A stretch of 62,873 nt of DNA, filler included, from Dugesia japonica (Eukaryota): NCBI GenBank assembly GCA_001938525.1. It is 5 parts of 5 records of this genome, joined end to end, with 100 filler letters (N's around TTAATTAATTAA, not from the genome) between each part and the next. Parts side by side here need not be neighbours in the genome. Positions count along the whole stretch, not along the records: positions 1 to 20,701 come from MQRL01628071.1; 4 more parts are not named here. One strand, 5' to 3'. A program made the position numbers and the translations under genes. The notes beneath the pieces are model-generated. The model was not told where the DNA came from. It saw nothing but the letters and a program-made list of their open reading frames with translations, and made no database searches. Within the stretch, counting starts at the first letter, position 1; each line of letters begins with the position of its first letter. This document shows positions 1,541 to 36,500 of this stretch, in pieces.

Positions 1541-3475
1541 TGTTGGGGTGGAACACCTAGTGAATTAAACAAAACCACATAAGTTCCAGTCTGTAAAGAA
1601 GAATAGTAAGGGCATCACAAGGGCCCGTTAAGAAAGGAAACAGTTCCGATCATAAATCAGATGCTACATATAAATCTTTAAATGAGTAAAAAACTCAGAA
1701 GATTGGCCATGGGAAAATTGGGTGAATAAAAGTGATGCACACCAATCACAGGAATTAAAAAAATTACCAAAATCAATAATAAAAACAAGAAAATCATTAA
1801 TAAAATAACTATCGTAAAAAGAAAAAATATTAATTAATTCAGAAATAAATTAAACCAAAATTAACGAAAAATTCGTTTTNTACGAATAACTTTACCACCA
1901 AAAGACACAGGAGCTGGGCAGAAGAAAATTTGGGAAGGATTTGGATCGGGTCATCGGAATGTTGACACAAGAAACTAGTACCACCATCTGGAGAACCTCC
2001 ACGAGGATGTTAAGATTGGTTCAATAGCATCCTGAAATTTAAAAAAATAAAACAAAGCATTAAGCCTCACCTGATGAGTTAAAAATAACCGCCAATTGGA
2101 ATTCTAAAACTTTGAAAGATTTTTAGAAAATTGGCAGTAGAACCAATCGGAAGCAATAAATACAAATTAAAAATAACCAACGAATACGAAAGAAGTTGGG
2201 GTGCGAAGAAAAATCGTATGAAAGAACCCCTGAAATTAGCAAAAAAGGCATTCATTTTTCAACTTCAACAAATACCAACAGAATTACAAACTTTATCTTA
2301 GGAAATTCATTACAAAAGAAATTGTTTACCACAATAATAATAGCCGAAGTAAGAGTACCAGTTATCGCANATCAATTGAGTAAATCTATTATTTGGATTG
2401 TGAGTTAATTTGAAATTTTTTGAGAAAGCAGAAATTACCTATATTCCGGAAAATTGTTAATTTTCTTCACCGAAACCGTTGCAGAATCTTTTGGAAATTA
2501 TTTTATTAGTAAGCGATATGTTTATATTATAAATAAATATTATAATTTCTAAAATAGTTTCATGTATGTTTTTTAATTTATATAATGTTAATAAGATATT
2601 TATAAATGAAGTTATAAATTTTCCATTTCTATCGATACTAAGTCATGATCATTGATGAGCGACGCTCACTACTNNNNNNNNNNNNNNNNNNNNNNNNNNN
2701 NNNNNNNNNNNNNNNNNNNNNNNTCTTAGGAAATTCATTACAAAAGAAATTGTTTACCACAATAATAATAGCCGAAGTAAGAGTACCAGTTATCGCATAT
2801 CAATTGAGTAAATCTATTATTTGGATTGTGAGTTAATTTGAAATTTTTTGAGAAAGCAGAAATTACCTATATTCCGGAAAATTGTTAATTTTCTTCACCG
2901 AAACCGTTGCAGAATCTTTTGGAAATTATTTTATTAGTAAGCGATATGTTTATATTATAAATAAATATTATAATTTCTAAAATAGTTTCATGTATGTTTT
3001 TTAATTTATATAATGTTAATAAGATATTTATAAATGAAGTTATAAATTTTCCATTTCTATCGATACTAAGTCATGATCATTGATGAGCGACGCTCACTAC
3101 TAATCGGATCAATAAAATAAAGTGAGCCTAGTAAATTAATCTATACCAGAATATCATCACGCATAATTGATCATTTCTCGCACATGCACTGTACAACAAT
3201 TATTGCCGTTGATTAACACTAACATAATGATTTAGTAGTTGGTGGATGATTCATCAAAATAACTACTCAACATAGTGAGGAAATTGAATAATTTTTTGTT
3301 TGTAAAATATTTAACTTTCAGGCACATACATCGTTATTTCCTGATTAGGTGTGTATTGAACATGTCCCTACTAACACACAAACGACCTTCATGGTGCTAG
3401 GAAACAAATAGCGCCCAAATTTAATTTAAATTAAAATCTATTTATTTCTAAATACTTGTAATTTTTTAACTCCTA
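1541..3475 (+). repeat. Putative very long 5' LTR (at least ~1.5 kb after removing the gap duplication; end not defined)
   Basis: Begins TGTTGGGG, has no convincing ORFs and is homologous along its length to the inverted copy at 1-1469. Confidence 0.55.
2296..3101. repeat. ~378-bp near-exact duplication on both sides of an N gap (probable assembly artefact)
   Basis: 2296-2673 is identical, apart from one N, to 2724-3101, with 50 N between them. Confidence 0.85.
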
Positions 3476-3949
3476 NNNNNNNNNNNNNNNNNNNNNNNNN
3501 NNNNNNNNNNNNNNNNNNNNNNNNNNNNNNNNNNNNNNNNNNNNNNNNNNNNNNNNNNNNNNNNNNNNNNNNNNNNNNNNNNNNNNNNNNNNNNNNNNNN
3601 NNNNNNNNNNNNNNNNNNNNNNNNNNNNNNNNNNNNNNNNNNNNNNNNTTACTATATTTTATAGTAGTGTTATTAAAGTTATTACTACCCAGGTTTATGG
3701 CATCATTGCTGTTACTATCTACGCGTATTATCGATTAAAACTATTATGGTAGACTTTACTAAAAGTATGATGTAAAGATAGTAGTGCTGTTGCGATTATT
3801 TCCACTTCTCACCCTAACTAGTAGGTTCAGGCTCTTGAACATCACATGGGGTTAAAAGGAATTTCGTTGTTTCAATATTAATGAAGTCATGANCAACATG
3901 ACTTAATGATCATCAGCAACAAATGTGTAAATATTAACTTGGTGAGAGT

Positions 3950-4162
3950 TTGGTAATATGGATCTGTTTTAGAAATCCTATGTCTGAATTATTTCTATTG
4001 ACCCTTCAATTAATACAACGAGAGCGCGAACAATCACGTAAACGGCAATTAATAGGACATCTCATAGCCCCGTGTCTGGTTATGCATCCCGACGAAACAG
4101 ATTTAATTTGCTTCACCGAGATGATTTCGTTGCCATTGAAAACGGATATGAATGAGAAATGA
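3950..4162 (+). pseudogene. Small Arg-rich ORF, paralog A (QREREQSRKRQL...HPDETDL)
   Basis: Ungapped 49-codon homology to 5933-6079, with substitutions biased to codon position 3. Confidence 0.5.
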
Positions 4163-4823
4163 TAATGAAACTTATTTCGTTGAAATAAAATATAGGATGG
4201 CCTAAAGCTCTAATTTTTAAATTTTATTGTTTATTGATGATTATATTAACCTTTATAATTAAATAAAATCTCTATTNNNNNNNNNNNNNNNNNNNNNNNN
4301 NNNNNNNNNNNNNNNNNNNNNNNNNNNNNNNNNNNNNNNNNNNNNNNNNNNNNNNNNNNNNNNNNNNNNNNNNNNNNNNNNNNNNNNNNNNNNNNNNNNN
4401 NNNNNNNGAGAATCCAAAATTTTGGCGAGCGGCTAAATTTCGAGCAATGGAATGGGCCAGAGCGAAATCACACAACGGCGTTCCAGTATCAACCTCCGGC
4501 CTCACCCCAACTCGTGCAGGCTTTCATCACTAACTTGCTCTGAGGCGTTAGGGAACCCTCTAGTATGGAGGATGCCGAAAGCGCCGCTTCTACCACGGAC
4601 CCCACAACTAATCCGCAGTGACTCTATTGTTTTATGATTAGAATGTAGAAATAAATACGTGTCTTTGTTTAATATTATCTTGCTTCGTTTCCTTCAGGGT
4701 TTTAATAAAGAACATTTTTAATAGTGTGATAAGTATATTTTGCTGTCCTAAAATTGGGAAGGGTTTCGTGTACTTCAGTAACATCGATAATAGTATATTT
4801 AGTAAACATTTACTATTTTGTAG

Positions 4824-5259
4824 TGCATTCCTCTCTGAACAGTCCTTCAGCTCCTACCAAGAAGATAAGAGACACCAGCGAGGGCCAAGAAATAACTTGG
4901 GACCTCTATTGCCTGGCAAAGCGACGCTGAGAGGCAAAGATAGCCATCGCCAAAAGTAAGGTGAGCCGGTATAAAAAGAAATGCCTAGCATTCAAGGCAG
5001 AAGCCGAAGCNNNNNNNNNNNNNNNNNNNNNNNNNNNNNNNNNNNNNNNNNNNNNNNNNNCCTAGCATTCAAGGCAGAAGCCGAAGCTTCACATAAACAG
5101 GAAAGAGTCTGGAAGGCTCAATTAGAATCTTTCCTTGAGATTATCCAGTCCTACCACGACCGAGAGAATAAACTGGTTGAGGATATTCACAAATTGAAAG
5201 CTGCAATGCCCCTCGAACCATTAATGGTCAACAAGGGTACACAGTTTCCGAGGGTTTAA
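4824..5259 (+). pseudogene. Upstream accessory coiled-coil ORF with PSAP motif (one internal stop)
   Basis: After the acceptor-like TTTTGTAG (4823) one frame reads SLNSPSAPTKKIRD...LYCLAKRR*EAKIAIAKSKVSRYKKKCLAFKAEAEASHKQERVWKAQLESFLEIIQSYHDRENKLVEDIHKLK once the gap-flanking duplicate is collapsed. GC content is higher than in the flanks. Confidence 0.45.
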
Positions 5260-5929
5260 GATCTGCCCTTGCATAAATAAATGTTTTAATATTAAACTTT
5301 ATTTTAATTCTATTACTTTTGCTAGTTAATTGGCCTGTTTGTCGCCTAACAAATAAACTAATGTTATATCTTGTTAAGTGCCGCGAATTACGTTCCCAAA
5401 CAGCCTGAGAAGGTGTCGCCGAATAATGCGACGTCATTATATGACCGAATATTTATAATGGTTTTTAACAACTAAAATCATGGGGATAAGAATAAATAAG
5501 ATTCTAATTATAACTAACAACAGTTAATAACATTTAAATAACATTATAATAAGGATATATAATCATATATGGAAATCATAACCTCCGTATAATTATTAAA
5601 ATAATAATAAATGGGTGTCTTATTAGTGTAATAATTGATGGTTAAACATTCACTTTTAGGGATATTAAAATTCATATCGTCACCACTGAAACTACTAACT
5701 AGCATTATTAACCGAATCCTGTGGACGCAAATCTTACCAAATTTATGGGGAAAAGGAAATAGTGCTATTTGCGACTTACCCTGATACTTACCTTGACTAT
5801 TATATTGAGCACTCTCAGAAGTGAATTAATTCTTGTCATATTCAATTATAGTAAAGTCGCGAGTGTTGCTTTTACCGGTGAACAATAAAAACCTGTGGAA
5901 TAACTAATTTTTTGCAAATGGTATAATAA

Positions 5930-6080
5930 TTGTGCATCAGTTTCAGATACTCCATGTCGAATATACTCCTATCGACTATTCAATTCATTCAACGAGAGCG
6001 CGAACGATCACGTAAAAGGCAATTAATCAGGCATTCCATAGCTCCCAGTCTAATTAGGCATCCTGACGAAACGGATTTAC
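5930..6080 (+). pseudogene. Small Arg-rich ORF, paralog B (QRERERSRKRQL...HPDETDL)
   Basis: Paralog of 3959-4105; weaker homology extends upstream (about 5650-5930 vs 3660-3950). Confidence 0.5.
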
Positions 6081-6095
6081 AAAAGAGAAAAGAAA

Positions 6096-6608
6096 GTGAA
6101 CTGGAAAATGGTAACCGGAATCTTTCGTTTCCTAACAAAAACAATGGTACTCGACAGCCATTCAAAGGATATCGATAGAGTAAAACGGTTTATCCGTAAG
6201 CTGGGTCAAATAAGAGGCTCGGATAAGGAAGTCGTAATGCAACTCCAACTATTATGCAAAGAGATGAGTAAAAGTAAAAAGAAAATATCTTATTTCAATC
6301 AATTTAAAGAAAGATTTAAGAACCGAGATGATAGCAGTAGCAGCAGTGATGATAACAGAGGAGAAAGCAGTAGATTACCCAGCGCATCCAGTTATAAAAC
6401 CGCCATGGAATGTAAAGCGGAATTCAAAAGGAAACAATATATAAAAACCAGTAAAATGCAACGATTGAAAAACGCGTTGAAATTCGGAGGAAGTGAAAAT
6501 ACACCTGCACAGATGTATTACAACGCATATCCACAACATGGATATGAACCAACAATGAACCAGCCAATGATTCAGTCAATGAACCAACAACCATCACAGA
6601 TATGGTAA
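6096..6608 (+). pseudogene. ORF in the gag position (basic, Ser-rich, Gln/Pro-rich tail); no recognisable capsid or CCHC motif
   Basis: 170-aa ORF directly upstream of the protease; assigned by position only. Confidence 0.35.
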
Positions 6609-6617
6609 CAAGGCCCA

Positions 6618-7090
6618 ATGTACGGCTCCACGTATCTGGGTTCACCACAGTTACTTAACATAGCATTGCTAACGGATAGCAACGTATCACAATTACCAGT
6701 TAACGATAGGAGGACAAACGACCAAAATTTGAAGTCAACTAATAGTCAAATCACAGAGAATGACAAGTTAGAAACACAAACGGTATGTATGATGACTACC
6801 CAGAGAACAAAATTACTACAGAAAAAGATAAAAGTGGACGGAAGATGGGTAACCGGTATTATTGATACTGGAGCAAGTATGTTACTAATCCACAAAAGGA
6901 TGATAGAGGAACACCGTCTACCAATGATAAGAATTACTAAAGGAGATTTCACTACGGTATCCGGAGAAAAAAATATCTTTACTAGGTGAAGCGATATGTA
7001 TAATCGAGAATGATGGAATTTGACTACATCACAAGATACGAATAATGAATGAATTGACTTGATTGTCTACTAGGACTGGACATCATACCA
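6618..7090 (+). pseudogene. Retropepsin-type aspartic protease
   Basis: IKVDGRWVTGIIDTGAS catalytic motif and a C-terminal DCLLGLD motif near 7061-7082 (frameshifted). Confidence 0.85.
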
Positions 7091-8594
7091 ATACTATGTC
7101 CCAACGGGCTATTAAACTTAAGAAAACTATCCCTCCATAATACGACAAACAAAGGAGAACGACTGCAATTGGCGATGCAGGACTATTGCCCATTATTGAA
7201 ATTTAAAACTGGGAAAGCAAATTCGAATGCCGATTGTCTATCAAGAATCGATGGACCGGATGAAGCCAACAATCCACCTGATAATTCTGAAACATTTACG
7301 CTGCGTGATCTGCTCGAAAAGAAAGTGGGAATGGTTTATTTTATATTAGCCGAAAATCCAAATTTTGACGGGATAAAGCCAGCACAAGCGGATGATGAAG
7401 AGATAAGGATCATTACAAAATGCATTGAAAATTACAATCTCGAAAAATTGGAATGCAAACCCAAAATAAAAGAGCTTTTAAAGAAGAATCGAGGTTGTTA
7501 TCCATTATCAACCAAAGGCTGGTTGACAGCTTAAGACGGCAAAAATACTGTGTTGGTCATTCCAAAATCCAGGCGGGACAAACTTTTGCAACAATATCAC
7601 AATGGAGTATTGGAAGGACACATATCCAATAAGAAAACTGAATCGAAACTAAGACAGAAATATTACTGGTCCCACATGACTGAATCGGTTAAAGAATGGA
7701 TCACAAAATGTCAAATATGTGCCGCCAGGAGTGGTACAGAAAAACGAGTGAAAGCCCTATTAAAACCTATCACTGCAGCTAGTACCTGTAGCTCCGATGG
7801 AGATTATAGCTATGAATGTAGTTGGACCATTACCGCCTACATTGCGTGGAAATATCTATATACTAACAATAATGGATTATCTGTCGAAATTCCCGGAAGC
7901 ATTCCCAATGAAAAACCAGAAAACAACCAAAATAGCAGATATACTAGTGAGAAAACTTTTCAGCAGGTATGGCACGCCCAAGAAAATACTAACCGATCAA
8001 GGAAAAAACTTTATGAATAACATATTAGCAGAAATATCGAGTTTCCTCAAAATACACCAATTACGAACATCACTTAATCATCCACAAACGGATGGCCTAA
8101 CGGAACGATTTAATAAAACGTTGGTCAATATATTGTCCAGTTATGCATAAAAGGAACAGAATAATTGGGATAAGCATATTCAGTTGTGTTTATCCGTGTA
8201 TCGAATGCGTATCCNNNNNNNNNNNNNNNNNNNNNNNNNNNNNNNNNNNNNNNNNNNNNNNNNNNNNNNNNNNNNNNNNNNNNNNNNNNNNNNNNNNNNN
8301 NNNNNNNNNNAAGATGAAACCGATTTTGTAGCAAATTTCAAAGAAACTATGCAGAAAATATGAATACAAGCCAAAGAAAATGTGGGATTTTAGCAAGAAA
8401 GCTAGAAAGATTTGCATGATAAAACAGCAGCCCAACATGCATTCAAGAAGGGCGATATAATATTAATCAATTTGCCGAATATTTGTGTCGGTATCACGTC
8501 GAAATTAAAAGAACCATGGCAAGGGCCATATGAGGTGATTGAGGTAACCGAAACTAACCTCAAGGTTCGAAATCTATCACGAAAACCTGTGTAA
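7090..8594 (+). pseudogene. Pol remnant: RNase H C-terminus plus integrase (zinc-binding, catalytic core, GPY/F)
   Basis: RLQLAMQDY..KTGKANSNADCLSR; H-NGVLEG-H...YYW...CQIC; VVGPLP...IMDYLSKF...LTDQGKNF...HPQTDGLTERFN; WQGPYEV. Confidence 0.92.
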
Positions 8595-8604
8595 AAAGCC
8601 TGCA

Positions 8605-10345
8605 ATGACAGACGAAAATACTCAGGCTACAAATATTACGCCAGCTACAACGGAGCCTAGGCGGTCAGGTAGGCCTCGCAAATCTGAAACTATGGAATCC
8701 ACTATCTCACATAGTTACCCTTTACGACTACAACAAGCTATGATGATACTCGGTAAAGCATCAGTACTAGCATTCTCACTAGGTCAGTTGAGTCAGCGCA
8801 TTAAAGAGCTGGGTACCACAACGTTGTACTTCAAAATACCTCGAAGGACCCGTGCGCCAGTGGCAGACAGCAGTTGTATTCATCTTACACAAATGAAATG
8901 TCCTTTCTCACCAACAGTCATTGAAGCAAGTTGTCTTACATGTGTAAGGAAAATCAAAACCATTTTGAAATCGACTTTACGAGCTGTTTCCACCCAAAGA
9001 ATTTGGTTGTTACAATAGGATATCTCTAATACAAAACAATGCAGGAAAATACACGGCGAGCTATCAATTCAAGCACTGTTGTCACAAGACACGATAAATG
9101 CGTTATGCGAACGTTGTATCAGTATTTATAGTGAAACGTTGACAACGGCAATTGAAAACTTCCACCTCATATTACTGGTCTAGGATTGGTTGGTATTACG
9201 GTCACAACCAGTCGATCCTCCACCATGAAGAGGGTTGGAATGATTACTACGAAAAAGAAGTCTCAGCGAAGACGCTGAGTCTGAAGAGAACAGGGAGGGA
9301 GAATTAGTAGAAAAGAATGAAGTCCAGTAGCTGGAAACGATCTTACAACCAGCAAAGGAGGAGGAAATAATAACCGAGTTACAGAAGATAACTCCAATGG
9401 TAAAAAAGCAGCCTTGGATTATGCTGACAGGCAAAGAAAGGCAAAGAGAATAAAAGGCGAACGGGCCTTTGAGGATTATCAGATCAAGGCCGAGAAACAA
9501 AAAGTAGAAGTTGAAGAAAGTACTAAGTCACTAAATAACTCGTTACCCGCCAAAGAATTAAGGCGGTCGAGTAAAGCGTGTATACCTAAAATAATCGACA
9601 CACCGAACTCTAATTTTCTTTTTCAGTCACAATAGACCATATCGATAAATAATAACAGATCACTTACTGCACTACAAAATATTAAAACCATATCTTTTAG
9701 TTCAGATAATCAAATGCGTCGGCAACTTAAAATCGAAGTCATGAACGCCATTATGATATATCCGATCATATGTAGAGGAAACCAGATACCGGCGTCAGAA
9801 GAAAGCTACATCCATATTACACGAATAATATGCCCACTCTCAACAATACAATTAGAAGAAAGCTGTCTCCAATGTATAAAAAACTCAAATTATCTTAAAA
9901 ACCTCATTAAAAGCCATTCACAATCAGCGAACATGGTTATCTAAACGAGAAAATTAGTTCAGAAAAGATTGTGATGGATCATTAATTGAAGCACCGATCC
10001 AGGCACCTATTCGCCAAAATATCATCAAGNATCTATGTCTGCTGTGTACGGATATTTACAGAGACGAATTACTAGCAGCTACTCACGTTTTTCACCGTAC
10101 ATTGGTACAATGGAATTGGATAAGAGTCTACGAACCTTCAAATATCCAATTGCCATGGGGGATGATTGGGTTGCCCATACAAAGAGAATACGATATAAAA
10201 AATGCTGAGGAGCCAGACACAAAAATAGACAAATTAATTCCAAAAGAACCGGAATCAGACAACATCGGGAATGCTGACAAGGAATTACAAAACCTTGTGA
10301 GGATAATGGAAAAGACATTCAATAATCATTGGAATGACTTGGANN
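8605..10345 (+). pseudogene. Tandemly duplicated Cys-rich accessory domain downstream of integrase (two copies)
   Basis: Copy 1 (~8830-9230): IHLTQMKCPFS..EASCLTC..ILKSTLRAVSTQRIWL..IQA..LCERCISIY..FH. Copy 2 (~9750-10165): IHITRIICPLS..EESCLQC..ILKTSLKAIHNQRTWL..IQA..LCLLCTDIY..FH. Confidence 0.7.
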
Positions 10346-10395
10346 NNNNNNNNNNNNNNNNNNNNNNNNNNNNNNNNNNNNNNNNNNNNNNNNNN

Positions 10396-12142
10396 AATAA
10401 TAAAAAGGGAAAGGAGACACAAGAAAATCCACTATCACAGAGAAACACGGGCAGTGTTATATATATATTCGAAGTAATAGTTAAAATGATCTTGTCACTA
10501 TGGGCACTAATCAACACAAGCTGTGATTATGACATTTTAGTGTGGATAATTCTGAAACTCGTCAGAAATCTAGGGAGGGGTTACTCAGCAATAATGATTA
10601 TATACGGAATTATAGGATTAATTTTATTATGATTATCAACGTCAGTCTTAGCAACTCAACAAATGCAGATAATACCTCAGAACGAAATACCTAGTGGACA
10701 AATCATACTAACTACCGTGCTAATAACTTTAAGAAGGATAAGAAGCTAGGAGTGCTGGGCGAATGAAGCTTTACTAACAGAGCATAAAATAGTGGTCGAG
10801 GGTCAAAAACCGCAATAAGGACTATGAGTACTGACGGACGAAACAGGGAAGTAAACATTCAAGAATCATTCGGTCACGAAATAGTAGTCATAAAACCCAC
10901 TATCAAAGGGCATGACGAGACAAAGTTATTATTAGTTTGGAAAGGTTGGATGGCAGAAATATGGTACCGAGGCGATATAACCGTAGAAGGTCAAGAAATG
11001 CAGTTTAACATGAAACATTGGTGGATGGAAACATCACAAGAATTCTAAGGAAAATATCATAAACCTACCAGAACATACGATCAGAAAATGTGGTTTGAAA
11101 TGAGTCGTTTGCTTAACATTCTAATCTACTATATAGCCGATGAAAGTCTCCAAAAAGGGTGGAAAATTATAAGAAAAGGTGGTGAAAGTTTAAAAATCTG
11201 CCAACATAATGAGTACACCTACCATATCGATTTTCGAAAAATATGATAAAGGAAACAACAAACAAAGAAAAAAAAGGATATTAATGGAGCAAAGAAGGAT
11301 AGCCATGTACCGAGGAACATGGTTAAACGTTGTGACTCAGTATATTTTTGGTAAATGGGGACCCCNNNNNNNNNNNNNNNNNNNNNNNNNNNNNNNNNNN
11401 NNNNNNNNNNNNNNNNNNNNNNNNNNNNNNNNNNNNNNNNNNNNNNNNNNNNNNNNNNNNNNNNNNNNNNNNNNNNNNNNNNNNNNNNNNNNNNNNNNNN
11501 NNNNNACGGGAATGAAGAAGTAACAAGCTATAAAAAATCCTTACAAGAATCCGGAGCAAACATGGGGAATTTCAGCTCAGAAATGTGGGAAATAGAATTC
11601 ACCACTGTCATAAACTGGGATAAAATAATAAGGCTAGGTACCCCAAAACCAATCACCAAAGAGATCACCATGACATCTACTACAGAACCCCCAACCACAA
11701 CAAAATGAAGAAATCAACTACAATAATTAACGAAAAAAAAGATTCAAAGAAAACAAATTTCTTAAATAGACTAATGTTAAACTTACACAATTTCAAATCA
11801 AGAGAGAACCAGGTGGCACCATGGGATATGCCCACCATACAAAAAATATCAGTCACAACTCCTCAAAACACAAAAACCGGAACAGATTATACGATAATAA
11901 TCGGAAGTGTCGTCGCTGCAATAACAATAATAGGTGTTGCATACGTATGTCTATGTGGAAGGGCAAAAGCTAAGAAAAAGAAACATACTCGAAGTAGAAG
12001 GGAACGATATTTACCGGTAGCCCCACCAAATTACGAATGGATGCAACCAGAGATAATATCGAACGAACTACCCATGTATCTGCCTAGACCCTATCATGCA
12101 CCGGGGGTAATGACTTGCTTAATAGACATTAGTTCTGTGTAA
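10396..12142 (+). pseudogene. Env-like type I membrane protein (disrupted)
   Basis: Hydrophobic signal-like stretch MIIYGIIGLILL*LSTSVLA (~10594-10653), Trp-rich ectodomain, Thr/Pro-rich stalk (TSTTEPPTTT), TM helix YTIIIGSVVAAITIIGVAYVCLC (11888-11956), basic stop-transfer KAKKKKH and cytoplasmic PPNY. Confidence 0.6.
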
Positions 12143-12233
12143 ATAGTGTAAAGTGTACTAAACTAATAATGATAAACAACTGTATATACATGTAAAAATA
12201 ACTATAGTATTGATTAATTCTTCACATTCAAAA

Positions 12234-12859
12234 ATGAATTATACAAAAAAAGAAAATGAAAATAAATACTCAAGCATGAGTGAAGATGAAGAAACGGATT
12301 CACAAATAGACTCAACAAGTCCAAGTGTGACAAGTCATATAAACAGCAGTCCTGCAAGAAGTCTTACACTAATAAATGACAATCAAAATATTACACAAGT
12401 GACGATACATGAAATATGGAGAAATCATAATGAAGAAATGAAAGAATTATGGAATAGTGTCAAAACACAAACTTTATGGACCCAACAGAGATTGGAAGAA
12501 CTAGAACACAGTCAGATTCAACTATTATAAATCCTAATAAATTCAAAACCCCAAGTATACTGCGAACTAGAATTTAAGAATAAAGTCTTGCAATTACAGA
12601 ATAAAAACCTTTATGCAAAAATCCTTGTGTCGACAACAAATATCGGAAAACAGACGAATGTTGTATACGACGACAGAAAAACAAAATTACGCAATGGACC
12701 TAATAGCCAGGCAACACGATTTAATCTCAAATCAGGAGGGAGAATCAAAATATGTCAGAGGGCTAGTAACCTCACAAATATTAGAGATGGAGACACTCAA
12801 AACCCGGAGTGCTCTTACTCAAGTCAGTTTTGTATAAACTGAAAAGGGAGATACAAAAG
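12234..12859 (+). pseudogene. Ser/acidic-rich then coiled-coil ORF; probable 5' exon of the IAP gene
   Basis: Overlapping ORFs 12210-12530, 12588-12842 and 12613-12837 are linked by a stop and frameshifts. They end at AG|GTATAA (donor at 12860). Confidence 0.45.
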
Positions 12860-12860
12860 G

Positions 12861-12899
<39 letters not shown>

Positions 12900-13016
12900 C
12901 TATATGGGTATTTATATTAAACTAAAAAAACAAATAAAAATAATATATACTTCTAAAAATATTACATAATGTACTATGTTGCTATATAATCAAGAATAAT
13001 TGTTTATATATTGTAG
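12860..13016 (+). other. Putative spliceosomal intron within the retroelement cargo (contains a (TA)n run)
   Basis: AG|GTATAA ... TTGTAG|, extremely AT-rich. Splicing joins LYKLKREIQK to IMEFNMEL in frame. Confidence 0.55.
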
Positions 13017-14203
13017 ATAATGGAATTTAATATGGAATTGACGCTGGAAGATGTTAGATCGATAATGGGCGATTCAGATATCAATCTACACATTATGAGC
13101 CAAGGTCGGGAGGAAATAAAGCAAGTTCCAATAGTCAAAAACATTCCACATTATCGTAGCAATTTCAGTTCACCAGAAAATTTAAACGAAGAACAGTGAA
13201 TTACAGCGTGATGAGAGTTTTTGATGAGAAATACAGAAACGAAAAAATGAGAGCCCTCACGCTACTCAAGTTACCTAATTATCTTCATAGGCTAATCAAT
13301 GATATGGCTAAAACAGGATTCTATTTCTTCGGAACCAGAGATGAACCAGACCGAGTAAAATGTATATATTGTCAAGGAAATTTGTATAAATGGAGGAGGA
13401 ATGATAACCCAAAAAGAGATCACAAGAGATCATTTCCCCCATGCCCATTCTTACTAAATTTGGATGTAAATAATCAGCCAAAAATAATAACCCAAGGTAA
13501 ACAACCAGAAATCGAAAAAATAACTACAGAACACAAAAAGTTGTATTATAAAGTAATAAAAAATTTAGCTGAAGTAACACTACCCGATGATTTGGAATGG
13601 AACATCGAAGCTAGGGAAGAAACATTTAGCGAAACACCAAAGTTATTGGAAAAAGCCATGGAAGGGTTATATATCACCGAACAGACAAACACCAAAGTCA
13701 TAAAATGCACAACATGCAAAAGAGAAACACCAATACTGAAAAACGTGGAGAAACTGCCNAGGAATATATTCCACCAACCAAAGTGTTCAAGATTAAGCCA
13801 AAGTTAGAAAGAAGAGATGTCCGTAACCTCATATAGAATACAATGGAATATGTCAAAAAACAGAATAGAAATGGCCGTCGAATAGCAAGCAGACAGATTA
13901 GCTAAAATACTCGAACTGAATAAAGAAACTAGTATCGAACTAATCGCAAAGACAGTCGCGGAAAAAGGAGTCGAAATGGTAACACCTTTAGAATTGTACC
14001 AACAATCTCTCAATACAATCACTAGACAAGTAAGTTATGAACAGGAATGGGTCCTAATAGATAGTGATTGCATCATTTGCCTCGATGAATCAATCCAAGT
14101 TGTATTTCTTCCATACGGACATTTTAAAATTTAATAAAATTGCACACTTATTTTAAATGAATGCCCAATGTGTAGAAAATTGATTAAGCGCAGAAAATTT
14201 TAA
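13017..14203 (+). pseudogene. Inhibitor of apoptosis (IAP/BIRC-type): BIR, degenerate BIR, linker, C-terminal RING
   Basis: BIR: RALT..MAKTGFYF..DRVKCIYC..LYKW..DNPKRDHKRSFPPCPF. Second BIR-like: AREETF..AMEGLY..KCTTC..HQPKC. RING at 14069-14203: CIICLDESIQVVFLPYGH..C..CPMCRKLI. AATAAA follows the stop. Frameshifts and stops are present. Confidence 0.9.
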
Positions 14204-14302
14204 CAATAAAATGAAAATAAAATATGTCAATAATGTCTATATCTATATATATAAATGTCAATATCATATTATACGTGCTTAATCACTCCCTCTAATTTAG
14301 AA

Positions 14303-14830
14303 ATGAGCAACGAAAACTTAATAACTCACCTTCGAAACAAAGTGCACACCCTCCAAATCCAAAACCAATCTCTCATCATAGTTCAAGAAGCACTAAAATG
14401 GAAATTAGACGCAAAAGAAAATGGTCTCCTAAATCTCCAACTCCAAAATTAAATCAGCGGCTTGAAACTCAAATCGTAAAAGTCCGACACGAACTCACAA
14501 TTAGAGAGCGATCTTGTATCGGTCACAAAAGAATAATGAAAAGAACTCTCGACGAGAACAGAGTTAAACGCCATCAGACAAGCACGTAATTGGAAAAGCA
14601 AATTCGAAGTCGAACCGAAGAGAAAAAAGCTGGAAAATCAGCTGTTAATCGAACAAGAAAACACCCAGATTCTGAGAATAGAGTTGTTCAATACTCAATT
14701 CGAGAAAACTCGCTTGGCAACAGAAAATCATATAATATAGAATTCAGTGTTCATGAATTGCACGTAACTTCCATTTTATTTTAGTGTCTACGAAACAATA
14801 ACCCTAACAATTATATTCGAAAAGATGCAG
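14303..14830 (+). pseudogene. Coiled-coil accessory ORF (frameshifted)
   Basis: MSNENLITHLRNKVHTLQIQNQSL...LNQRLETQIVKVRHEL...KLENQLLIEQENTQILRIEL; heptad-like and preceded by acceptor-like TAATTTAG. Confidence 0.4.
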
Positions 14831-15294
14831 AGCGAAAAGTATTAAGTGATCGGACGACTTAGGGAACTGGAAATGATTCAAAAAACCGTGTCAGTAAGAA
14901 TCGGAAGCTGACATTCTTACATCAAGACATCCAGTTGTATGTTTAATTTCTTCATTAATTTTGAGAATTGATTGTAAATTCAAAGTTGATTTAAACAAAA
15001 ATGAGTCAATATTAAAGATGGGATGTCTAAAAAAGTGACTTATAAAGATGCCAATGATGATGAATACTAAATAAAATAGTAATTAAGAATTAACTTAATT
15101 AAAAGAAATACGCCTAACAGCTTGCCTTTGACATTAATATATTAATTTTATATTGCTGAACAAATAAAAGTAATGCGTAACCTACAACTACGAAAGCAAT
15201 TTTAATAAATTTAGTATTCTGTAATTAAAGAACATAAACATGGTAAAATTGTATTGTCAGTTTAATTTTAAAAATTGAAACAGATAACATTAAA

Positions 15295-18200
15295 TCATTG
15301 TGAAAAATATTTATCGATATGATTTTCAATATCTTCTTTAGTAAATTGAATGTATTTATCACGTTTAGTAGTAAATTGAATGTGCAAAAATGCATCCCGA
15401 AAATCGCAATACTTTGGAATGAAAGTAGATTTTAAGTCACAAATTATTTGTTTCTTTAAGTCCTTATCTGGTAGAGCATAAAGACTATGGCTTTTGGAAA
15501 GAATTAGAAAACTTTGATTAAATCGCTAAAATATAATCAGTGAAAAATTAAATTAAATAATGATTACTGTCCAAATATCCTTTATTTGCGTTTTCAAACT
15601 ATTATCAATCTATAAGAATACATTTAGATTATATTTAATTAATAATTTACTTTATTCCCATTATTTGTAAGAGAAGCATATAATTTTTGTTCGGGAATAT
15701 TTGAAGATTTTATAAATCTAAAAAATTGCAATTTACAAAACGCTAAAAAATGTTACTTACGTTGAAAGATAGATCAATTTTTTTTGGTTAATACAATTAA
15801 GAAGGCTTTTGGACATGTTGTCATTGGACAATTGAGAAGTGTTGTAAAATTCTGACCTATTAAAAAATTAACCTATATTAAATATTTATAAACCTAAGTA
15901 ATATTTTTTTGGTTTTGCGACTATTGTAGTTACTAAAAATTACAAAAATTCAGGGATTATCATGTAAATGATACAAAAGTATCAATTAATAATCTGTGTA
16001 TCAGATATGACACAGGTAAAGGATTAAAAAAACAGTAAATGAAAATTTCATTAATGAAATCTCAAATGCGATCAATGGTTAAGTCCAACAATTATTCTCT
16101 CAATAATTGTAATTATAAATGAAAATTATCAATTAATGTTAGATACAATAAAGATAGTGTATTTAGTGAAGACATGTGGTTTTGCAAATTCCCAAAGAGA
16201 CAACTGCTATTTATCTCAGTAGTTAAATCAATAATCTCCAATAATTCGATGCACTAATAAAATGAAATAAAGTTAAAAAACTTAAAATTATTCAAATAAT
16301 TCTGTGAAACCATGGATGCTGAACACACCGAACCTTTACTGCGTACAGAAGTCAGGTGGTTTTTTAAAGGTACAAAAAGTATCAAATTATCTTACCCTCC
16401 AAGTAGCAGAGGATGTGGATTTAACAATTCCTGTTGAATACGTTCATTTTCAAACGATGCAAATGGTATGTGAGACAAAAGCATTTAAATATCAAATGTA
16501 TTAAATTTTCAATTTTAAATATAAATTATTCCATTAATTACTCGAAAAATTGACTAATAAATTTTACCCTGATGTAGTTTTGTAAATATAATGAATGTTG
16601 TTTATTTGAAATATTATTCGGGGAATATCATCATTATAAATCATCGACATGTTTGTTATGTTTGTTATAAGTCCATCAATAACTTTATCTTAAATAAATA
16701 ATTACACACTTTCAATATAAAAGTAAAAAAATAAACTAATATATTCTCCAAAGGTATTTTTCGAATTAGTTTCGGAAATTAAGTTTCCAGAATTTCTAGA
16801 CAGAATTGAACGCGATTTTGTAACTGATTTCGAAGGAACATGAACAATTTTGTCAGCAATATTAATATTAGATAAATTAAGCTCAACAATTTTTCCGTGA
16901 CTTAACAAAGTTTCTAAAAATCTTAGGGCCTAAAAAGACATTAACATCACATATAAAAGCGAAAATAACATTTGTGGTTAATTCGTGAACAGTTGCATCT
17001 GATGGAACACATGTTCCATCTAATGCTGTAATTTTTTCTGTTTTAATATATTCAACATATACTTCCAGGCATTGCATAATTTGTTGCGTTAATTTATTAA
17101 GCATCAAGTAAATAGATTGACGAGTAGTTTCCATGGTGACCTATTAAATTCAAAATCTAATCTTATGAAAAAATATATACGTATAATATTTCTTGTAAAT
17201 CACTTTTAATTTCCATAAATCTTTCAAGAACTATAATTAAATTTATAACATATTGATACTGATGCTTCGCTTGAGCTCTTATCATCATTTTCAATAATTC
17301 CTTTTAATAAAATATATATTACAATATGTTTGAAATTATTTTACGTTGCCATCATTTAGGAAATCATTTATACTTCCTTTAATTATAGCATCCATAGCAC
17401 CACATTTATCTTTAAATTCTGGAGTAAGGTTTAATTTTTCTAACCAACATTTTTCGTTCTAAAAACTTAAATTTTTAACACGTAATTTTAATAATCACCT
17501 GCATTAACTTAACTAAAGCGACTAATCGTATAGTAAATAAATTGGATTCTCGCTCCTCAAAATCTTCTTTAACTTCACTTCCTTGGCGTTTGTGACTAAC
17601 TGTTTAAATAATCATACTACAAAAGCTAAAAAATTACTTTCTTTAACAACTTGAATGTTTCGTTTATTAATCCTAAAAAATATTACTTATAATCGACTAA
17701 TTATAATTGAAAAAATTTAACATATTTAAAAGTAATATACGTTTTAGAAAACCAGAATGTTATACCAATTTAAAATTATAACTACCAATAATTATTTTCA
17801 AATATCTAAAGTTCAGCACAAAGAAATGTTTGTATTGATTTTTCTCATTATTTCAAACTTTAAAAATCCCCTATTGTAATTATTTGATGTTTATTAATTC
17901 CGAAAATAAAAAATCCGATTACCATTATTATACTTATTTAAAAATTATAAAACATTCCTAAATATTACCGACATAATAAATTAATTTAGAACGTTTTAAT
18001 GTCAGTATTTTATTTTGAAATTGAAATTATTATTCACATATTTTAAATTAAAAGCTTACGGTTTTCGTTTGTTAGATTTCAGTGTTGAAGTTTTATTACG
18101 CTAAAATTATATTAAAGCAACATGATACAAAGAGGTTTACCAGAGAAAGTGTAGCTTGTTCTAAATGATTGTAATTTTTACACCACTCTTTAAATCTATA

Positions 18201-19125
18201 AAAATGTCATTGAAATCATTTTTTTATTTTTCTATTAACCTTTCCATGGTTGATCTCAGTGCTTCACGCCTACAAGTACAATATCGAACAACGCAATTAA
18301 TGGTTTTATCTTCTAAGAGCCATTTTGATATTATTTTTAAATCTGAAATATGACTTTCAGCAACATTTTCAAAAATTTCAGTTGTTACTGTATACGAACT
18401 AGATATACTTTCATTATCGTTTTGACTCTCTAAATCAAATCGTTTATAACTTTTTAATACAATAAAGAACCTTTATAAAAGCATAAATTGAAAATATTTT
18501 CAGGTCTAATAATTGGAAATGCTTGATTTAATATACTTTCAAATTCCTTTTCTATTGAAGATTTTCCTGTGCAATAAAGAGCAGTCTACATATAAATTGA
18601 ATTACAAAAATTTATAAATTTACTAGATGAGCTAATTCAACATTATTAGGATCATTATCCTTAAAAAATTCCATTGCATTTCTAATTTTGTCCATAGCTG
18701 CTAAATAATGATCTAAGTTCCCACTAGGACTATAAGCATTTAAAATATATTGCATTAGTAAAATGCAAACCATTTATTAATAATAGTTTCTACTTCTAAA
18801 CCAGTTCTATTAAAGTTTTGAGTTTTCATAAGGGCACTGCGACATGTTTCCATATCTTAAAGATATTAACATTAAGAAATGCTTATTTTATACTTTTAAG
18901 AGCATTCTGAAATTGATCTATAGTTCGACTGAGTGGTTCCAACTTAACTTGTAAATATTGCGAAGTTTCAATAATTCCATTTAGTTTTTCGTCTGTTTCT
19001 TCTAATAAAGTTTGATATTTTCCGGATAGATTTTCTGTTTGTTTTATAAAGTTTTTTAACTGAACATTCAAAAGCACGAATAAATTAAAAATTTATAATT
19101 ATCATACTTGAGTGTCTGCAATCAT
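15295..19125 (-). CDS. EXOC7: Exocyst complex component 7 (Exo70), multi-exon host gene
   Basis: Exons read MIADTQ|LKNFIKQ..., PSGNLDHYLAAMDKIRNAMEFFKDNDP, VPSDATVHELTTNV, YNDDIPRIIFQINNIHYI and terminal RFNQSF..YALPDKDLK..FTTKRDKYIQFTKEDIENHIDKYFSQ*, all matching Exo70 signature regions. Introns are GT-AG; not every exon was traced. Confidence 0.88.
16280..16500 (+). mobile_element. hAT (Buster/Charlie-like) transposase relic inside an Exo70 intron
   Basis: CETMDAEHTEPLLRTEVRWFFKG resembles the conserved C..M..EH..LL.HTEVRWLS.G motif. Confidence 0.7.
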
Positions 19126-20701: not shown

Positions 20702-20801
20702 NNNNNNNNNNNNNNNNNNNNNNNNNNNNNNNNNNNNNNNNNNNNTTAATTAATTAANNNNNNNNNNNNNNNNNNNNNNNNNNNNNNNNNNNNNNNNNNN
20801 N
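20702..20801. other. Artificial scaffold-join spacer N44-TTAATTAATTAA-N44 (also at 32405-32504, 42322-42421, 53819-53918)
   Basis: The same 100-bp construct occurs four times; the 12-mer gives stop codons in all six frames. Confidence 0.95.
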
Positions 20802-21540
20802 TGCGATAATGAGAAGATGTATTGTGATAATGAGAACAGGTATTGTGATAATGAGGAGAGCTATTGTGATAATGAATAGAGCTATTGTGATAATGAGAAG
20901 AGGTATTGTGATAATGAGGAGAGGTATTGCAATAATGACGAGAGGTATTGTGATAATGAGGAGAGGTATTGTGATAATGAGAAGAGGTATCGTGATAATG
21001 ACGAGAGGTATTGTGATGAGAAGAAGTATTGTGATAATGAGGAGAGGTATTGTGATAATGAGAACAGGTATAGTGATAAAGAGAACAGGTATTGTGATAA
21101 TGAGGAGAGGTATTGTGATAATGAGGAGAGGTATTGTGATAATGAATAGAGCTATTGTGATGAGAAGAGGTATTGTGATAATGAGAAGAGGTATTGTGAT
21201 AATGAGGAGAGGTATTGTGATAATGAGGAGAGGTATTGTGATAATGAATAGAGGTATTGTGATAATGAGAACAGGTATTGTGTTAATGAGGAGAGGTATT
21301 ACGATAATGAGGAGAGGTATTGTGATTATGAGAACAGGTATTGTGATAATGAGAACAGGTATTGTGATAATGAGAGGTATTATTATAATGAGGAGAGGTA
21401 TTGTGATAATGAGGAGAGGTATTGTGATAATGAATAGAGGTATTGTGATAATGAATAGAGGTATTGTGATAATGAGGAGAGGTATTGTGATAATGAATGG
21501 AGGTATTGTGACAATGAGGAGAGGTATTGTGATAATAAAA
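20802..21540. repeat. 21-bp minisatellite (ATTGTGATAATGAGGAGAGGT)n, about 35 units
   Basis: Directly visible; it produces the MRRGIVI / IITIPLL repeat ORFs. Confidence 0.95.
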
Positions 21541-21589
21541 TGATGGAAGAGTTTATTCATTAGTTAGTTAATAATTTAAATAAGCACCA

Positions 21590-22080
21590 AACAGTTTTAA
21601 CTAAGCAGTCTTCAATACAAAATGCTGCAACCGAAACCAGTTTGATGCGGTCCAATAGGACTGTAAAATCGGAACCAGCTTGTTCTGGCGATTAGTTCAT
21701 CAAAGAATGCTTGTCAAATGTAGTAAACATTATTTATCCATAACAGAAAACAAAATCTGGCAGCATTTCTTTATCAAGAAGAACTGTAGTGAGGCGTGCT
21801 GAAAAAATAAGTGACAATTTAGTTTCTACCAATTTCAAAGACTTTATGGTACTCACTTGCATTGGACGAGAAGATGCAGCACGTTTCCAGCTTACCGAAG
21901 AATTACTTAGTGTTGAGTCACTCAAAAACACAACCACAGACAAAGATTTATTCAATGCTGTTGAAAACTGTGTTGAAAGAAACGGATTGGTGGAGAACAA
22001 GATGGCAAGTGTAACACTACCGGCCAACCATACACTATTAACAATCCACTGTGTCATCGAACAATTAAATCTGTGTAAAG
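21590..22080 (+). mobile_element. hAT transposase relic (GTF2IRD2/SPIN-like)
   Basis: FIKECL..ISLSRRTVVRR..EELLSVESLKNTTT.KDLF..IHCVI motifs with internal deletions. Confidence 0.75.
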
Positions 22081-22473
22081 CTGCATATGATTTATATGGT
22101 TTTAATATTTTTTTATGATCTTTTAGATATTGGTTAAAAGTTTTCCAAAATGCATAGAAGTCAATGAAAATATATTTGATGTCTTTAAAATATACTTTTT
22201 TTTAAATATAATTCTAAAAAGTTTTATACAATAATTTTTTGATAATTATTAAGAGAAAATATTATAATAATGCAAATATTTACCAAGATATTCCAAATAC
22301 GTTTGATCACTATCTTCGATACTGTTTTGAAATGCTTGGATATTGTTAATTTTTTTATTTGTTTCATAAACTATGGTTTTTATGATTGGAATCGGTTTAA
22401 ATGTAAAAAACAAAATTACATTAATCAAAACTATTAATAAATATATCCAATAGATTTTTTTTGATCGTATCAT
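22080..22473 (-). CDS. 5' exons of a host gene with an N-terminal signal anchor (type II membrane protein, function unknown)
   Basis: MIRSKK followed by hydrophobic IYWIYLLIVLINVILFF; donor G|GTAAAT; the next exon reads DIKYIFIDFYAFWKTFNQYLK. Confidence 0.4.
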
Positions 22474-23329: not shown

Positions 23330-25650
23330 ATACAATGCAAATTTTTGGAGAGAAATTAATAAAAATCAACAAATTCGAAAATGAATCTGAAGATAACACA
23401 TTCTGAGGATGATGGAAAAAATAACGCGTTAAAAGTGTTTAAAGGAATTGATAACCGAAAAACGGTTCAGTTGATCCAGAATTTTGTTGAAATATTCATG
23501 GCGTCAAAGTTTGAAATTGGACAGAATAGAAAAGTGATACATGAAATAAAAGTTAAAGGATATCCAATAGTACAACACTCTAAAAGACAGCTAATGCGTT
23601 TCGAAAAGAAATTTGAAGATATGATTTAACATTTAGTAAATATTGGTGTGATCAGAAAGTGTAATAGTCCTTGGAATTCTTCATTAGTGATTGTATTAAA
23701 ATAGGCGGCTTGATAAAAATGTGCTTTTATTACAGAAAAAGTGTCCTTTCCAATGCCAGACATTTAGTTATTATTAGATTGTTTATCTGACTCGAAAATA
23801 CTTTTATAAATTGATCTGGGCTAAGTCTATTACCAAATGAAGTTGGCGGAAAAGTCAAGTGATGAACTGCTTTTAGTACAAAAGAAGGTCAATGCAGATT
23901 TAACTGAATGCCTTTTGGATGAACCATTTTCTAAAAATTTTGCACGAGTTATTGAAGGAATTAATTTTCAAAGGAGGTGTTGTATATCTGAATGATATTT
24001 TGGTGTTCGGAAAAGTTTTTGAGGATTACGACAAGATGTTGGAAACAGTTTTTTATACGTTCAGCGATTTTGAATTAAAAATATGCCCAAAAATGTAGGT
24101 TTTATCATAAAGAAGTGCTGTTATTGTGACATACAGTGAGTTCAACTGGTATGCTTACAAATTTAGTTAAAATATGCTATTAAGATATGATATTAAGAAT
24201 GTTATAGTTCCAGTATGTTCTTTGAAACTTCATTTTTTATCGTACTAACAAACTATTACACGCGTTTCTTAAAAGGTTATGCAATGATAGCAGCTTTTTA
24301 TATGAAGAGAGATTTAACGTAAGAACAGACCACAAAGCGTTGGTCTTTCTGGAAACTAAAGAAACCAATCTACCCACAATTCCAAACGTGGATGGTGAAT
24401 TTGAGAGAGTATGATTTTAAACTCAAGTTTAGAAAAGGCGAAGAACGCAACAATGCAATTGGGTTGTTGAGGCTAAAGGAGAGTTTTTGTTCACAATACA
24501 GCATAAAACACATAGACGCTAATGGAGAAAAAGTGAGACTAAAACATCTCAATGGAATTCAACATGAGACTGATATATTTACAGTGATTTGACAGTCTCA
24601 GACAGAAGATTCAGAAATACAAAGCTGAGTAGCAATTTTTTGAGACGACGATTTAGATACTGAAAATTGTGAACAAGGAAACTATTGTAATAAACTGAAG
24701 CAAAATTGAAAATAGGGAATTATTTGTTAGTGCTGGAAATAGTAAATAAATCTCTGTTAATGGTTCCTACAAGCATGGTTGATAAAGTGATAAAGGAAAT
24801 TCATGAAGATTTATGTTATCTAGGAAGGCAATTAATTAAAGTATTGACAAATGCGAGATGTGTTCCAAAAGAAAAGTAATACAAAGTCGTACAAAAGAAA
24901 AAATTATACCGTGGATTAGCAAAAATTTCTTAGAACAAATCATAGTGAATATAGCTCAAATGGAACAGACCAAGTCTTGAAAGAAATATAGGGTGGTAAT
25001 TATTGATCGTTTTAGCAAACTAGTCAGTTTATCTGAAGTTTCAACAATGGATGAAGAGACGATTTTTATGATAATCTTGGACAAATGGATATCCTGTTTT
25101 AGTAAACCAAAATCCATTCTGACGGACAGAGGTGAAGTGTTCGAAAGTCAATGTAACACTAATGGTATACAGTCATTTAGTTTCGTGGAACGGTTTATCC
25201 TAACCGTGAGGGACATGATTATGATATCATTGAAAAATAAATGTAATGAGAATGATAAAGAGGCATTATTACCGAAGGAAGAATTCAGTATTAACTCTAC
25301 AATACAAGAGTCATCAATATTCTTTCATTTCAAAATTGTATTTAGTCGGAAGATAAATCCGCATACCAAAGAGTAAACCCTCTTAGGAGGAAGAACAGAC
25401 TGAGAAGAGAGAGAGAGCGACAGAATTTCTATTTGTGGCAGAAAATGTAACATTTTGAGAAAGATAAGCGAAGACAAAGGGAGAGTGTGGATTAGTCCAA
25501 GTATAACCACACAGAAAAAAGAAAATGGTTTGCTTTATGAAGGGACATTTAAATAACGAGGCTTATATCAGCACATCAAGAAGAAATCAAGTTTTTAAAT
25601 GGTTTGAAATTCAGAAGAAAGATGAAAAATGTTTTGAAGGAGGGGAGAGA
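23330..25650 (+). mobile_element. Degenerate Ty3/Gypsy pol (RT, RNase H, integrase) ending in a polypurine tract
   Basis: CNSPWNS, VYLNDIL, VRTDHKAL, VIIDRFSK, LTDRG motifs; GAAGGAGGGGAGAGA near 25636. Confidence 0.85.
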
Positions 25651-35700: not shown

Positions 35701-36500
35701 GGAGCAAAGATAGAGATTCCTTTAGAATCCTGATATTTACGAACAATAAAGATCAACACTATGAAGTAACTGAAAAAGGTTTGACGGAAATAATGAAAGC
35801 TTGTCTTAGAATTAATCCAAAAAAATGTCAATTTCTTCAGAGCAAAATCAGATTTGTTGAACACATAATTAGCAGAGATGGTGTCAAAAACTGATCCATT
35901 TAAAATATAAGCAATAGGAATATTAGGAAAACCTAACTGTGTGAAGAAGCTGCGAAAGATTTTAGGAATATGTAATTATTACAAGAAGTTGGTAGAAAAT
36001 TACGCAAGAAAGTCAAGGATCTTAGAGCAATTGTGTAGCGGACCAAGCAACAAGAAGTTAGAATACACAGATGAAAAAAACGATACTATTGAGGTTCTGA
36101 AAAAATCTCTATTTACTACACCAATATTGTGTTTTCCAGATTTAAATAGAAAATTTATTTAGATGCCAGTTTTGATACAATTGGAGAAGCATCATCACAG
36201 AGAGATAAAGAAGGAATAGAAAGAGTTGTTGCATATAGATCACACTCAATGGCGATTCATGAAAAGGGATATTACATCACTAGAAAGGAATTATTCGCTG
36301 TTTGTTATTTCTGCATGCACTTCAAACATTACTTGTACACGAGAAGATTTACTCTTATAACAGACCAAAAAACTCTAACTTTCATGATGACGACGAAGAA
36401 ACCAATGACGTTAGAAGTTCAAACATGGATTATAAGTAGTCTAGAAATGATTTTGGAATATAGAAAATGAATGCAACATGGTAATACAGATATGTTATTA
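32800..36500 (+). mobile_element. Degenerate Ty3/Gypsy gag-pro-RT-RNase H with a second, diverged RT-thumb/RNase H block
   Basis: CCHC knuckles (CWICYRVGHTSKRC), CNSPWN, LCLDFR, IDLGNAYYQ, VYLDDIL, RTDHKA; the NPKKC..RKEL..TD block recurs at 35730-36500. Confidence 0.9.

Follow-up and report, generated by a model that had tools for sequence, protein, structure and literature searches.

A Cys/His-rich domain occurs twice in tandem behind the integrase of a Gypsy-type element in the genome of Dugesia japonica. This duplicated domain is real, old and was once functional, and the element that now holds it has decayed. The stretch analysed, called the window below, is 62,873 nucleotides long, filler included (assembly GCA_001938525.1). 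It consists of eukaryotic scaffold DNA, is AT-rich and contains several decayed Gypsy elements; all positions count along it. The part of the element that bears the domain is organized as follows:

7559..8594, + strand: Gypsy integrase with an H2C2 finger (PF17921, 2e-17), an rve core (PF00665, 1e-12) and a GPY/F-type C-terminal domain (PF18697, 0.006)
8572..8748, + strand: integrase C-terminal tail with EPRRSGRP and YPLR, in the frame of copy 1, with zero stops between
8734..9192, + strand: Cys/His domain copy 1, core 8881-9189, with two in-frame stops
9250..9635, + strand: charged linker separating copies 1 and 2, in which the frame changes, with ELRRSSKA (9555-9578) at its end
9648..10122, + strand: Cys/His domain copy 2, core from 9813; frameshifted near 9878-9880, stop at 9955
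10180..10343, + strand: acidic tail 3' of copy 2, which enters an N gap (10344-10395), with AATAAA at 10399

The duplicated domain and its divergence

A preliminary description of this DNA had proposed a tandem pair of units behind the integrase. The pair is confirmed by alignment, since 8734-9192 and 9648-10122 are 33% identical and none of 2000 shuffles reaches their score. In this comparison with shuffled controls, unit 1 was aligned separately to each half of the frameshifted unit 2, the halves not being joined, and scored 113 and 128 for shuffle means of 32 and 29. A tblastn search of the window with unit 1 recovered the two halves of unit 2 with E values of 6e-8 and 1e-9. Similarity between the units is undetectable at the DNA level (best blastn E 0.29), and a domain profile search found no third copy in the window. 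The motif string initially read by eye (IH.T...CP.S...) agrees with the computed alignment of both units, while the size of about 130 aa first given to them has to be revised: the homology covers about 150 aligned codons and the core about 105 aa. Copy 1 lies in a single frame (8548-9249) whose in-frame stops, at 9016 and 9181, are inside the domain; copy 2 also contains one N.

The two copies match at 85, 86 and 59 of 151 aligned codons for codon positions 1, 2 and 3 respectively (56, 57 and 39%, for a random expectation of 27%), the difference between positions 2 and 3 being significant (Fisher p=0.003). Fifty residues are identical between the copies, and 32 of these are encoded by different codons. 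Furthermore, Cys, His and Trp are kept in 20 of 26 cases versus 80 of 273 for the other residues, a figure to be read knowing that the scoring matrix favours Cys and Trp matches and that the alignment has a single gap, of 3 residues. Past purifying selection, as initially suggested, is supported by these codon-position identities, by the differing codons and by the Cys/His/Trp count. The higher conservation of positions 1 and 2 than of position 3 indicates that both copies diverged as protein-coding sequences and that the stops and frameshifts came later. The Cys/His/Trp conservation first described stands for Cys, six of which are common to both units, but extends to only two His and two Trp.

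Attachment to the integrase

The integrase has itself decayed: it contains stops and frameshifts, and its first catalytic position is not acidic. Its closest relative, P0009, aligns over 7812-8591 at 45%. The tail of P0009 also matches 8572-8748 in the frame of copy 1 (5 of 2000 shuffles, as the best of three frames tested), the other two frames giving 768 and 1935 of 2000. P0009 stops 23 residues past this shared tail, without the Cys/His domain. ATG codons near 8608 and 8740 permit a separate translation of the domain.

An RRS-type motif had been described before each unit and an acidic linker after it. Both motifs are present (EPRRSGRP at 8653, ELRRSSKA at 9555), but the stretches preceding the units are weakly alike (82 of 2000 shuffles). 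Among 120 integrase relatives, RRS follows GP[YF] in two and Y.LR is found in two, so RRS marks the integrase tail in a minority of them. That it recurs before copy 2 weakly suggests that the duplicated block included the integrase tail. The sequences after the units are mildly acidic, with 14 D/E versus 9 K/R in 55 aa and 13 versus 8 in 54 aa, but they are not homologous to each other (905 of 2000 shuffles).

A tree was built with 51 of the 120 relatives (11 of 11 with the order RT-IN, 20 of 43 IN-RT and 20 of 66 unlabelled). It places the integrase of the element among canonical RT-RH-IN Gypsy integrases, outside the clade with the Gmr1 order (support 97/97) and next to P0009 (unstarred support 87/79); one label assigned from motifs (P0058) is probably mistaken, and the branch of the query is long. 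The Gmr1 order (PR-IN-RT-RH), common among the integrase matches, was considered and rejected, since an RNase H stub precedes the integrase, no RT follows it and it falls outside the 97/97 clade. A chromodomain (PF00385) is found in 4 of the 120 integrase relatives listed.

Putative zinc sites and structure models

The ligands shared by the copies are H-x5-C-x10-C-x2-C and C-x21-C-x2-C-x15-H, with identical spacing and zero indels between these two sequences. In copy 1 they are H 8881, C 8899, C 8932 and C 8941, then C 9040, C 9106, C 9115 and H 9163. Cys 8875 and His 9052 are found in copy 1 alone, and copy 2 has one Cys, two His and one Trp of its own. In zinc domains generally, two sets of four Cys/His with C-x2-C pairs indicate structural zinc sites. 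The eight shared Cys and His thus form the pattern expected of two four-ligand sites, and zinc binding is putative. It is deduced from the ligand pattern, because both structure models are too poor for testing a metal site.

These AlphaFold2 models, built from shallow alignments, have pLDDT of 34.3 and 49.5, too poor for use, and display two long helices starting near each C-x2-C. The first helical segment is basic (6 K/R and 0 D/E in 27 aa); the amphipathicity of the two helices is not significant (239 and 396 of 2000 shuffles). With the better, still poor, model as query, Foldseek returned 0 rows from the PDB, the best BFVD match had an E of 4.6, which is noise, and the best VIA match, to generic coiled coils, had a Z of 5.6, also noise. 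As the query model is poor, these fold searches are uninformative on the novelty of the fold.

Search for relatives of the domain

As already proposed, the domain has no known family in any of the libraries tried, namely Pfam, NCBIfam, PHROGs, PDB sequences and two large protein sets, a choice that includes no eukaryotic transposon library. Pfam and NCBIfam each gave 0 families for the domain at E<=0.1. The best PHROGs match (E 0.048) is a PHROG of unknown function, and a three-row domain profile found 0 PDB sequences at E<=10. In a word-indexed set of 5.8 billion proteins, unit 1 matched 0 of 170 candidates near its length and 0 of 722 of 411-2000 aa, and HMMER with the three-row profile found 0 of 1.84 billion representatives at E<=0.001. 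The domain profile matched 0 of the 120 integrase relatives (best E 2). In prokaryote genomes, 0 of 77 pattern matches were confirmed and phages gave no match to the domain, both groups being an unlikely home for it.

As a positive control, the integrase of the element found 339 relatives among 582 candidates, the best being only 56% identical, which suggests that the element's own family is absent from the protein sets searched. A blank for the faster-evolving domain is then expected whether or not it is known elsewhere, and novelty is not proved. Word matching of titles and abstracts, outside Repbase Reports and subscription papers, found none describing the domain or an RT-less protease-integrase element with an inhibitor of apoptosis (IAP). 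The available text of PMC8532177 and PMC13238120 holds nothing on the domain, and the domain maps and supplements of Grohme 2018 and Lee 2026 may already show it. Given the lack of a family match in the libraries searched, it is plausible that the domain is new.

Gene content of the element and its surroundings

Besides the integrase region, the following features were recognized in the element and the rest of the window:

3959..6178, + strand: 5' zone with a paralogous small ORF pair (ATG at 3980 and 5954) and two further short ORFs
6054..7130, + strand: N-terminal region, possible Gag remnant, then retropepsin (PF13650, E 1e-5, above cut-off)
7133..7252, + strand: RNase H C-terminal stub straight after the protease, aligning to the RNase H ends of relatives (best E 4e-5)
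10486..12142, + strand: decayed type I membrane-protein-like gene with N-terminal hydrophobic stretches, a Thr-rich stalk and a TM near 11882
12234..12842, + strand: ORF with one internal stop, no assignment
13020..14183, + strand: intronless, decayed IAP gene with BIR (PF00653, 7e-19) then RING (PF13920, 0.0026, below cut-off)
14303..14728, + strand: decayed ORF preceded by a TATA run at 14244; judged by eye, it resembles a coiled coil; no assignment
16286-18472, - strand: Exo70-like host exons adjoining the end of the element (PF03081, E 7e-4, below cut-off, at 16889-17140)
23636-24346, 29563-30268, 34600-36404, 42425-43374 and 60045-61089: five ordinary decayed Gypsy elements with RT (RT profile)

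The end of the protease and the RNase H stub lie in one open frame (6867-7252), and the stub reveals a pol ancestry. The protease DTG and the ADxLSR motif are about 120 codons apart here versus 674 in P0017, the one canonical-order relative with both motifs. At the junction, LLG is compatible with the end of the protease as well as with the RNase H strand of another relative, P0048, which suggests a deletion at short homology or a misassembly. Most of RNase H is absent from the element. An RT profile made from 40 relatives has no match in 3700-16000, while it matches the five other places of the window given above.

Gag has no Pfam match, and comparison of the pre-protease ORF with the Gag regions of 36 relatives gave none below E 0.79; a decayed Gag could escape such a search. 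ORF 5062 was rejected as Gag, its weak match (E 0.0012, best domain iE 0.04) being treated as coiled-coil bias. The best LTR-type match between the 5' and 3' sides (36.8 bits) equals the maximum of 20 shuffles, and an end could lie hidden in the N gaps at 3476-3648 and 4277-4407. Just past the latter gap, TGGCGAGC at 4423-4430 is presumably similar to a tRNA-Arg primer-binding site; it is 8 nt long and may be due to chance. The ends of the element are undefined. No inverted repeat stands above background, and polymerase, capsid and ATPase have no Pfam match among the element ORFs scanned.

All the genes from about 3980 to 15070 share one orientation, with an A-skew of +0.2 to +0.4 over 6000-15000, and the 5' zone (3959..6178) probably belongs to the element. 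The small ORF pair of this zone (3959-4162, MSELFL..., and 5933-6178, MSNILL...) has no Pfam match; its DNA similarity extends over about 450 bp, upstream sequence included. In 147 nt the pair has 33 mismatches, 12, 4 and 17 of them on codon positions 1, 2 and 3. Because the mismatches follow this codon pattern, the 147-nt repeat was rejected as an LTR pair.

Downstream, the membrane-protein-like gene occupies an env-like position and carries a cytoplasmic PPNY at 12023, which we take to be a PPxY motif. It has no family match above cut-off and, at the sensitivity used, no env or fusion-protein match. The BIR of the IAP gene (13020-14183) is also supported by matches to BIR of the PDB, and a possible second, degenerate BIR was seen by eye near 13580-13800. 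TATA or (TA)n runs at 10458, 12861-12890 and 14244 precede the ATGs at 10486, 13020 and 14303. AATAAA lies within -6 to +45 nt of five of seven gene ends, compared with 17% for stop triplets in general (p=0.002) and with 1 of 12 for internal stops, the gene ends having been picked by eye after the motif list was seen and the intergenic DNA being AT-richer. The gene ends without it are those of the membrane-protein gene and of ORF 12234. This arrangement of TATA and AATAAA resembles that of compact DNA-virus genes.

Elsewhere in the window, a 378-bp duplication (2296-3101, 99.7% identical) flanks an N gap and a 27-bp duplication is found at 4984/5061; both are likely assembly overlaps. An inverted repeat of about 500 bp (749-1249 versus 1748-2246, 67% identity) is possibly an old DNA transposon. 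Positions 20739-21640 hold an array of units mostly of 21 bp, open in several frames. The ORF 21744-22115 looks like what we take to be a hAT/SPIN-type transposase fragment, and 51348-51821 is a host-exon-like open frame of 158 aa without Pfam match. Rfam and tRNA scans of the window were empty.

Comparison with known systems

The nearest described system in gene content is Burro/GYPSM1, the planarian giant Gypsy LTR elements, compared here by description rather than by sequence. It shares with the element a Gypsy protease and integrase and many accessory domains, including BIR and RING. The available text of PMC6431247 reports giant Gypsy elements whose accessory domains include BIR, known domains covering half of the 4,873-aa Burro ORF1, decaying Burro fragments and the order Gag-CCHC, env, protease, dUTPase, RT in one giant ORF. 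According to the part available of PMC13465017, which cites Lee et al. 2026 and is thus second-hand here, Burro has BIR and RING accessory domains and in Burro1 the BIR-RING gene reportedly shields stem cells from apoptosis. In contrast to Burro/GYPSM1, no RT, CCHC Gag, dUTPase after the protease, MATH/BCL2/ankyrin or LTRs were seen in the element, which is about 11 kb long versus 25-30 kb and carries its membrane-protein gene 3' of pol. A deleted copy could have lost Gag-CCHC, env, dUTPase and RT of the Burro type.

The element resembles canonical Ty3/Gypsy elements (Metaviridae, RT-RH-IN), with which its integrase groups, by its retropepsin, RNase H end, H2C2, rve and GPY/F-type domains. It differs from them by the shortened protease-ADxLSR distance (about 120 versus 674 codons), by the long tail with two unrecognised domains and by several downstream genes. 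Lentiviral Vif, Vpr and Vpx are small helical Cys/His proteins of zinc type encoded between pol and env, Vpr and Vpx being paralogs; the likeness is an analogy, with no PDB sequence match and with copy 1 here in frame with the integrase. Ginger1, in the text available of PMC2836005, has a Gypsy-type integrase without RT or retropepsin, a C-terminal OTU, Ulp1 or PHD, TIRs of 40-270 bp and a 4-bp TSD. The element is similar in its lack of RT and its extra C-terminal domains on a Gypsy-type integrase, but it has an upstream retropepsin and RNase H stub and many extra ORFs, no TIR was found, and its C-terminal domain is not OTU, Ulp1 or PHD. Polinton/Maverick elements, which have a type B DNA polymerase, a packaging ATPase and capsids (available part of PMC8502044), were rejected, none of their defining Pfam matches being seen among the element ORFs scanned.

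Candidate roles and alternative explanations

The explanation that we favour, with confidence slightly above even, makes the domain a helical adaptor, stabilised by zinc and carried on the integrase of a giant Gypsy relative that has decayed and lost its RT. The analysis shows the duplication, the divergence as coding sequence, the ligand pattern, the continuous frame with the integrase tail and the absence of RT, whereas we infer zinc binding, the fold, a single polyprotein extending into copy 2 and the role in tethering. The domain would be a small intracellular module, mostly alpha-helical, holding two zinc ions (HCCC and CCCH sets), which would have been joined to the tail of the integrase in a large element derived from Ty3/Gypsy, then duplicated long ago, selection keeping both copies while the lineage was active. 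Most likely an adaptor translated within the protease-integrase polyprotein and left on the integrase, it may have tethered the integration complex to host chromatin or to a host protein. It sits where other Gypsy-type integrases bear chromodomains or PHD/OTU/Ulp1. Taken alone, this tethering role is tentative and somewhat short of an even chance. The present copy is dead and, on this view, has lost RT and most of RNase H. In favour of the explanation are the eight identically spaced ligands, two of whose pairs are C-x2-C, the divergence as coding sequence, the unbroken frame from integrase tail to copy 1, the grouping of the integrase with canonical RT-RH-IN ones, the RNase H stub, the basic first helical segment, the C-terminal domains of Ginger1 and of the four chromodomain relatives, and the known giant Gypsy elements with BIR. 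Against it, the structure models are unusable, P0009 and the other integrase relatives lack the domain, the ATG codons near 8608 and 8740 permit separate translation, the helices are not significantly amphipathic, no homolog of the domain was found in the sets searched, no LTR or Gag was detected, and AATAAA after five of seven gene ends fits poorly with a full-length retrotransposon RNA. It is somewhat unlikely that the domain belongs to a known family missed through broken sequence and a weak three-row profile, for example a part of the Burro/GYPSM1 ORFs in Repbase. The half of Burro ORF1 without known domains and the decaying Burro fragments noted above would allow this, but Pfam and the 1.84 billion representatives gave nothing, and the gene order described for Burro, in which env is placed between gag and protease and dUTPase follows protease, was not observed in this element.

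By analogy with lentiviral Vpr/Vpx or Vif, the same zinc-helical domain may instead have formed free proteins disarming host defence, for example by ubiquitin ligase recruitment or a block of small-RNA silencing. These would have been liberated when the retropepsin cut at the charged linkers, or made by separate translation. Its place between pol and the membrane-protein gene, near the BIR-RING gene, its duplication and divergence to 33% identity, which suit diversifying accessory genes, and the second paralogous ORF pair of the element would agree with such a role, but copy 1 is in frame with the integrase and neither solved viral proteins (by sequence) nor BFVD models (with a poor query model) match, which makes it rather unlikely. 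The lack of RT, the open frame joining protease end and RNase H stub, the failure to detect Gag or LTR, the AATAAA at five of seven gene ends and the TATA runs before three ATGs could also mean that the element was never RT-dependent in this form, being a DNA element or integrated DNA virus with a Gypsy protease-integrase, of whose polyprotein the domain would be an accessory part, and with separate TATA/polyA genes. This appears improbable, as polymerase, capsid, ATPase and TIR were not found and the gene ends were picked post hoc by eye in DNA whose intergenic parts are AT-richer; in a single decayed copy, a private deletion or misassembly explains the RT loss equally well. That it represents a type of eukaryotic mobile element not described before, namely a DNA element or integrating DNA virus with a Gypsy protease-integrase and a new two-zinc helical domain family on it, without RT and Gag, and with individually promoted and polyadenylated genes (PPxY surface glycoprotein, apoptosis inhibitor, duplicated small ORFs), is quite improbable. 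Finally, the shared Cys are even in number, copy 1 opens with a mildly hydrophobic MMILG... stretch and a membrane-protein gene adjoins, so that the six Cys could pair as three disulfides of a domain secreted or exposed at the surface, an env-associated or captured host ectodomain, rather than bind metal. This is very improbable: the two shared His complete two four-ligand sets, copy 1 is in frame with the integrase, neither copy has a 19-residue hydrophobic window >1.8, and copy 1 has its most hydrophobic 13-mer close to the C-terminus and contains no N-glycosylation sequon. As these readings overlap in part, the confidences given to them do not sum to one.

Significance

The value of these observations is limited because they come from one dead copy. 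Domains appended to integrases often decide the insertion site, as established for chromodomains. A new two-zinc helical family behind an integrase would be a new targeting or host-countermeasure module. The element also adds a case to the Gypsy-derived elements with a BIR-RING gene. If relatives share the RT loss, they would document the conversion of a retrotransposon into a DNA element.
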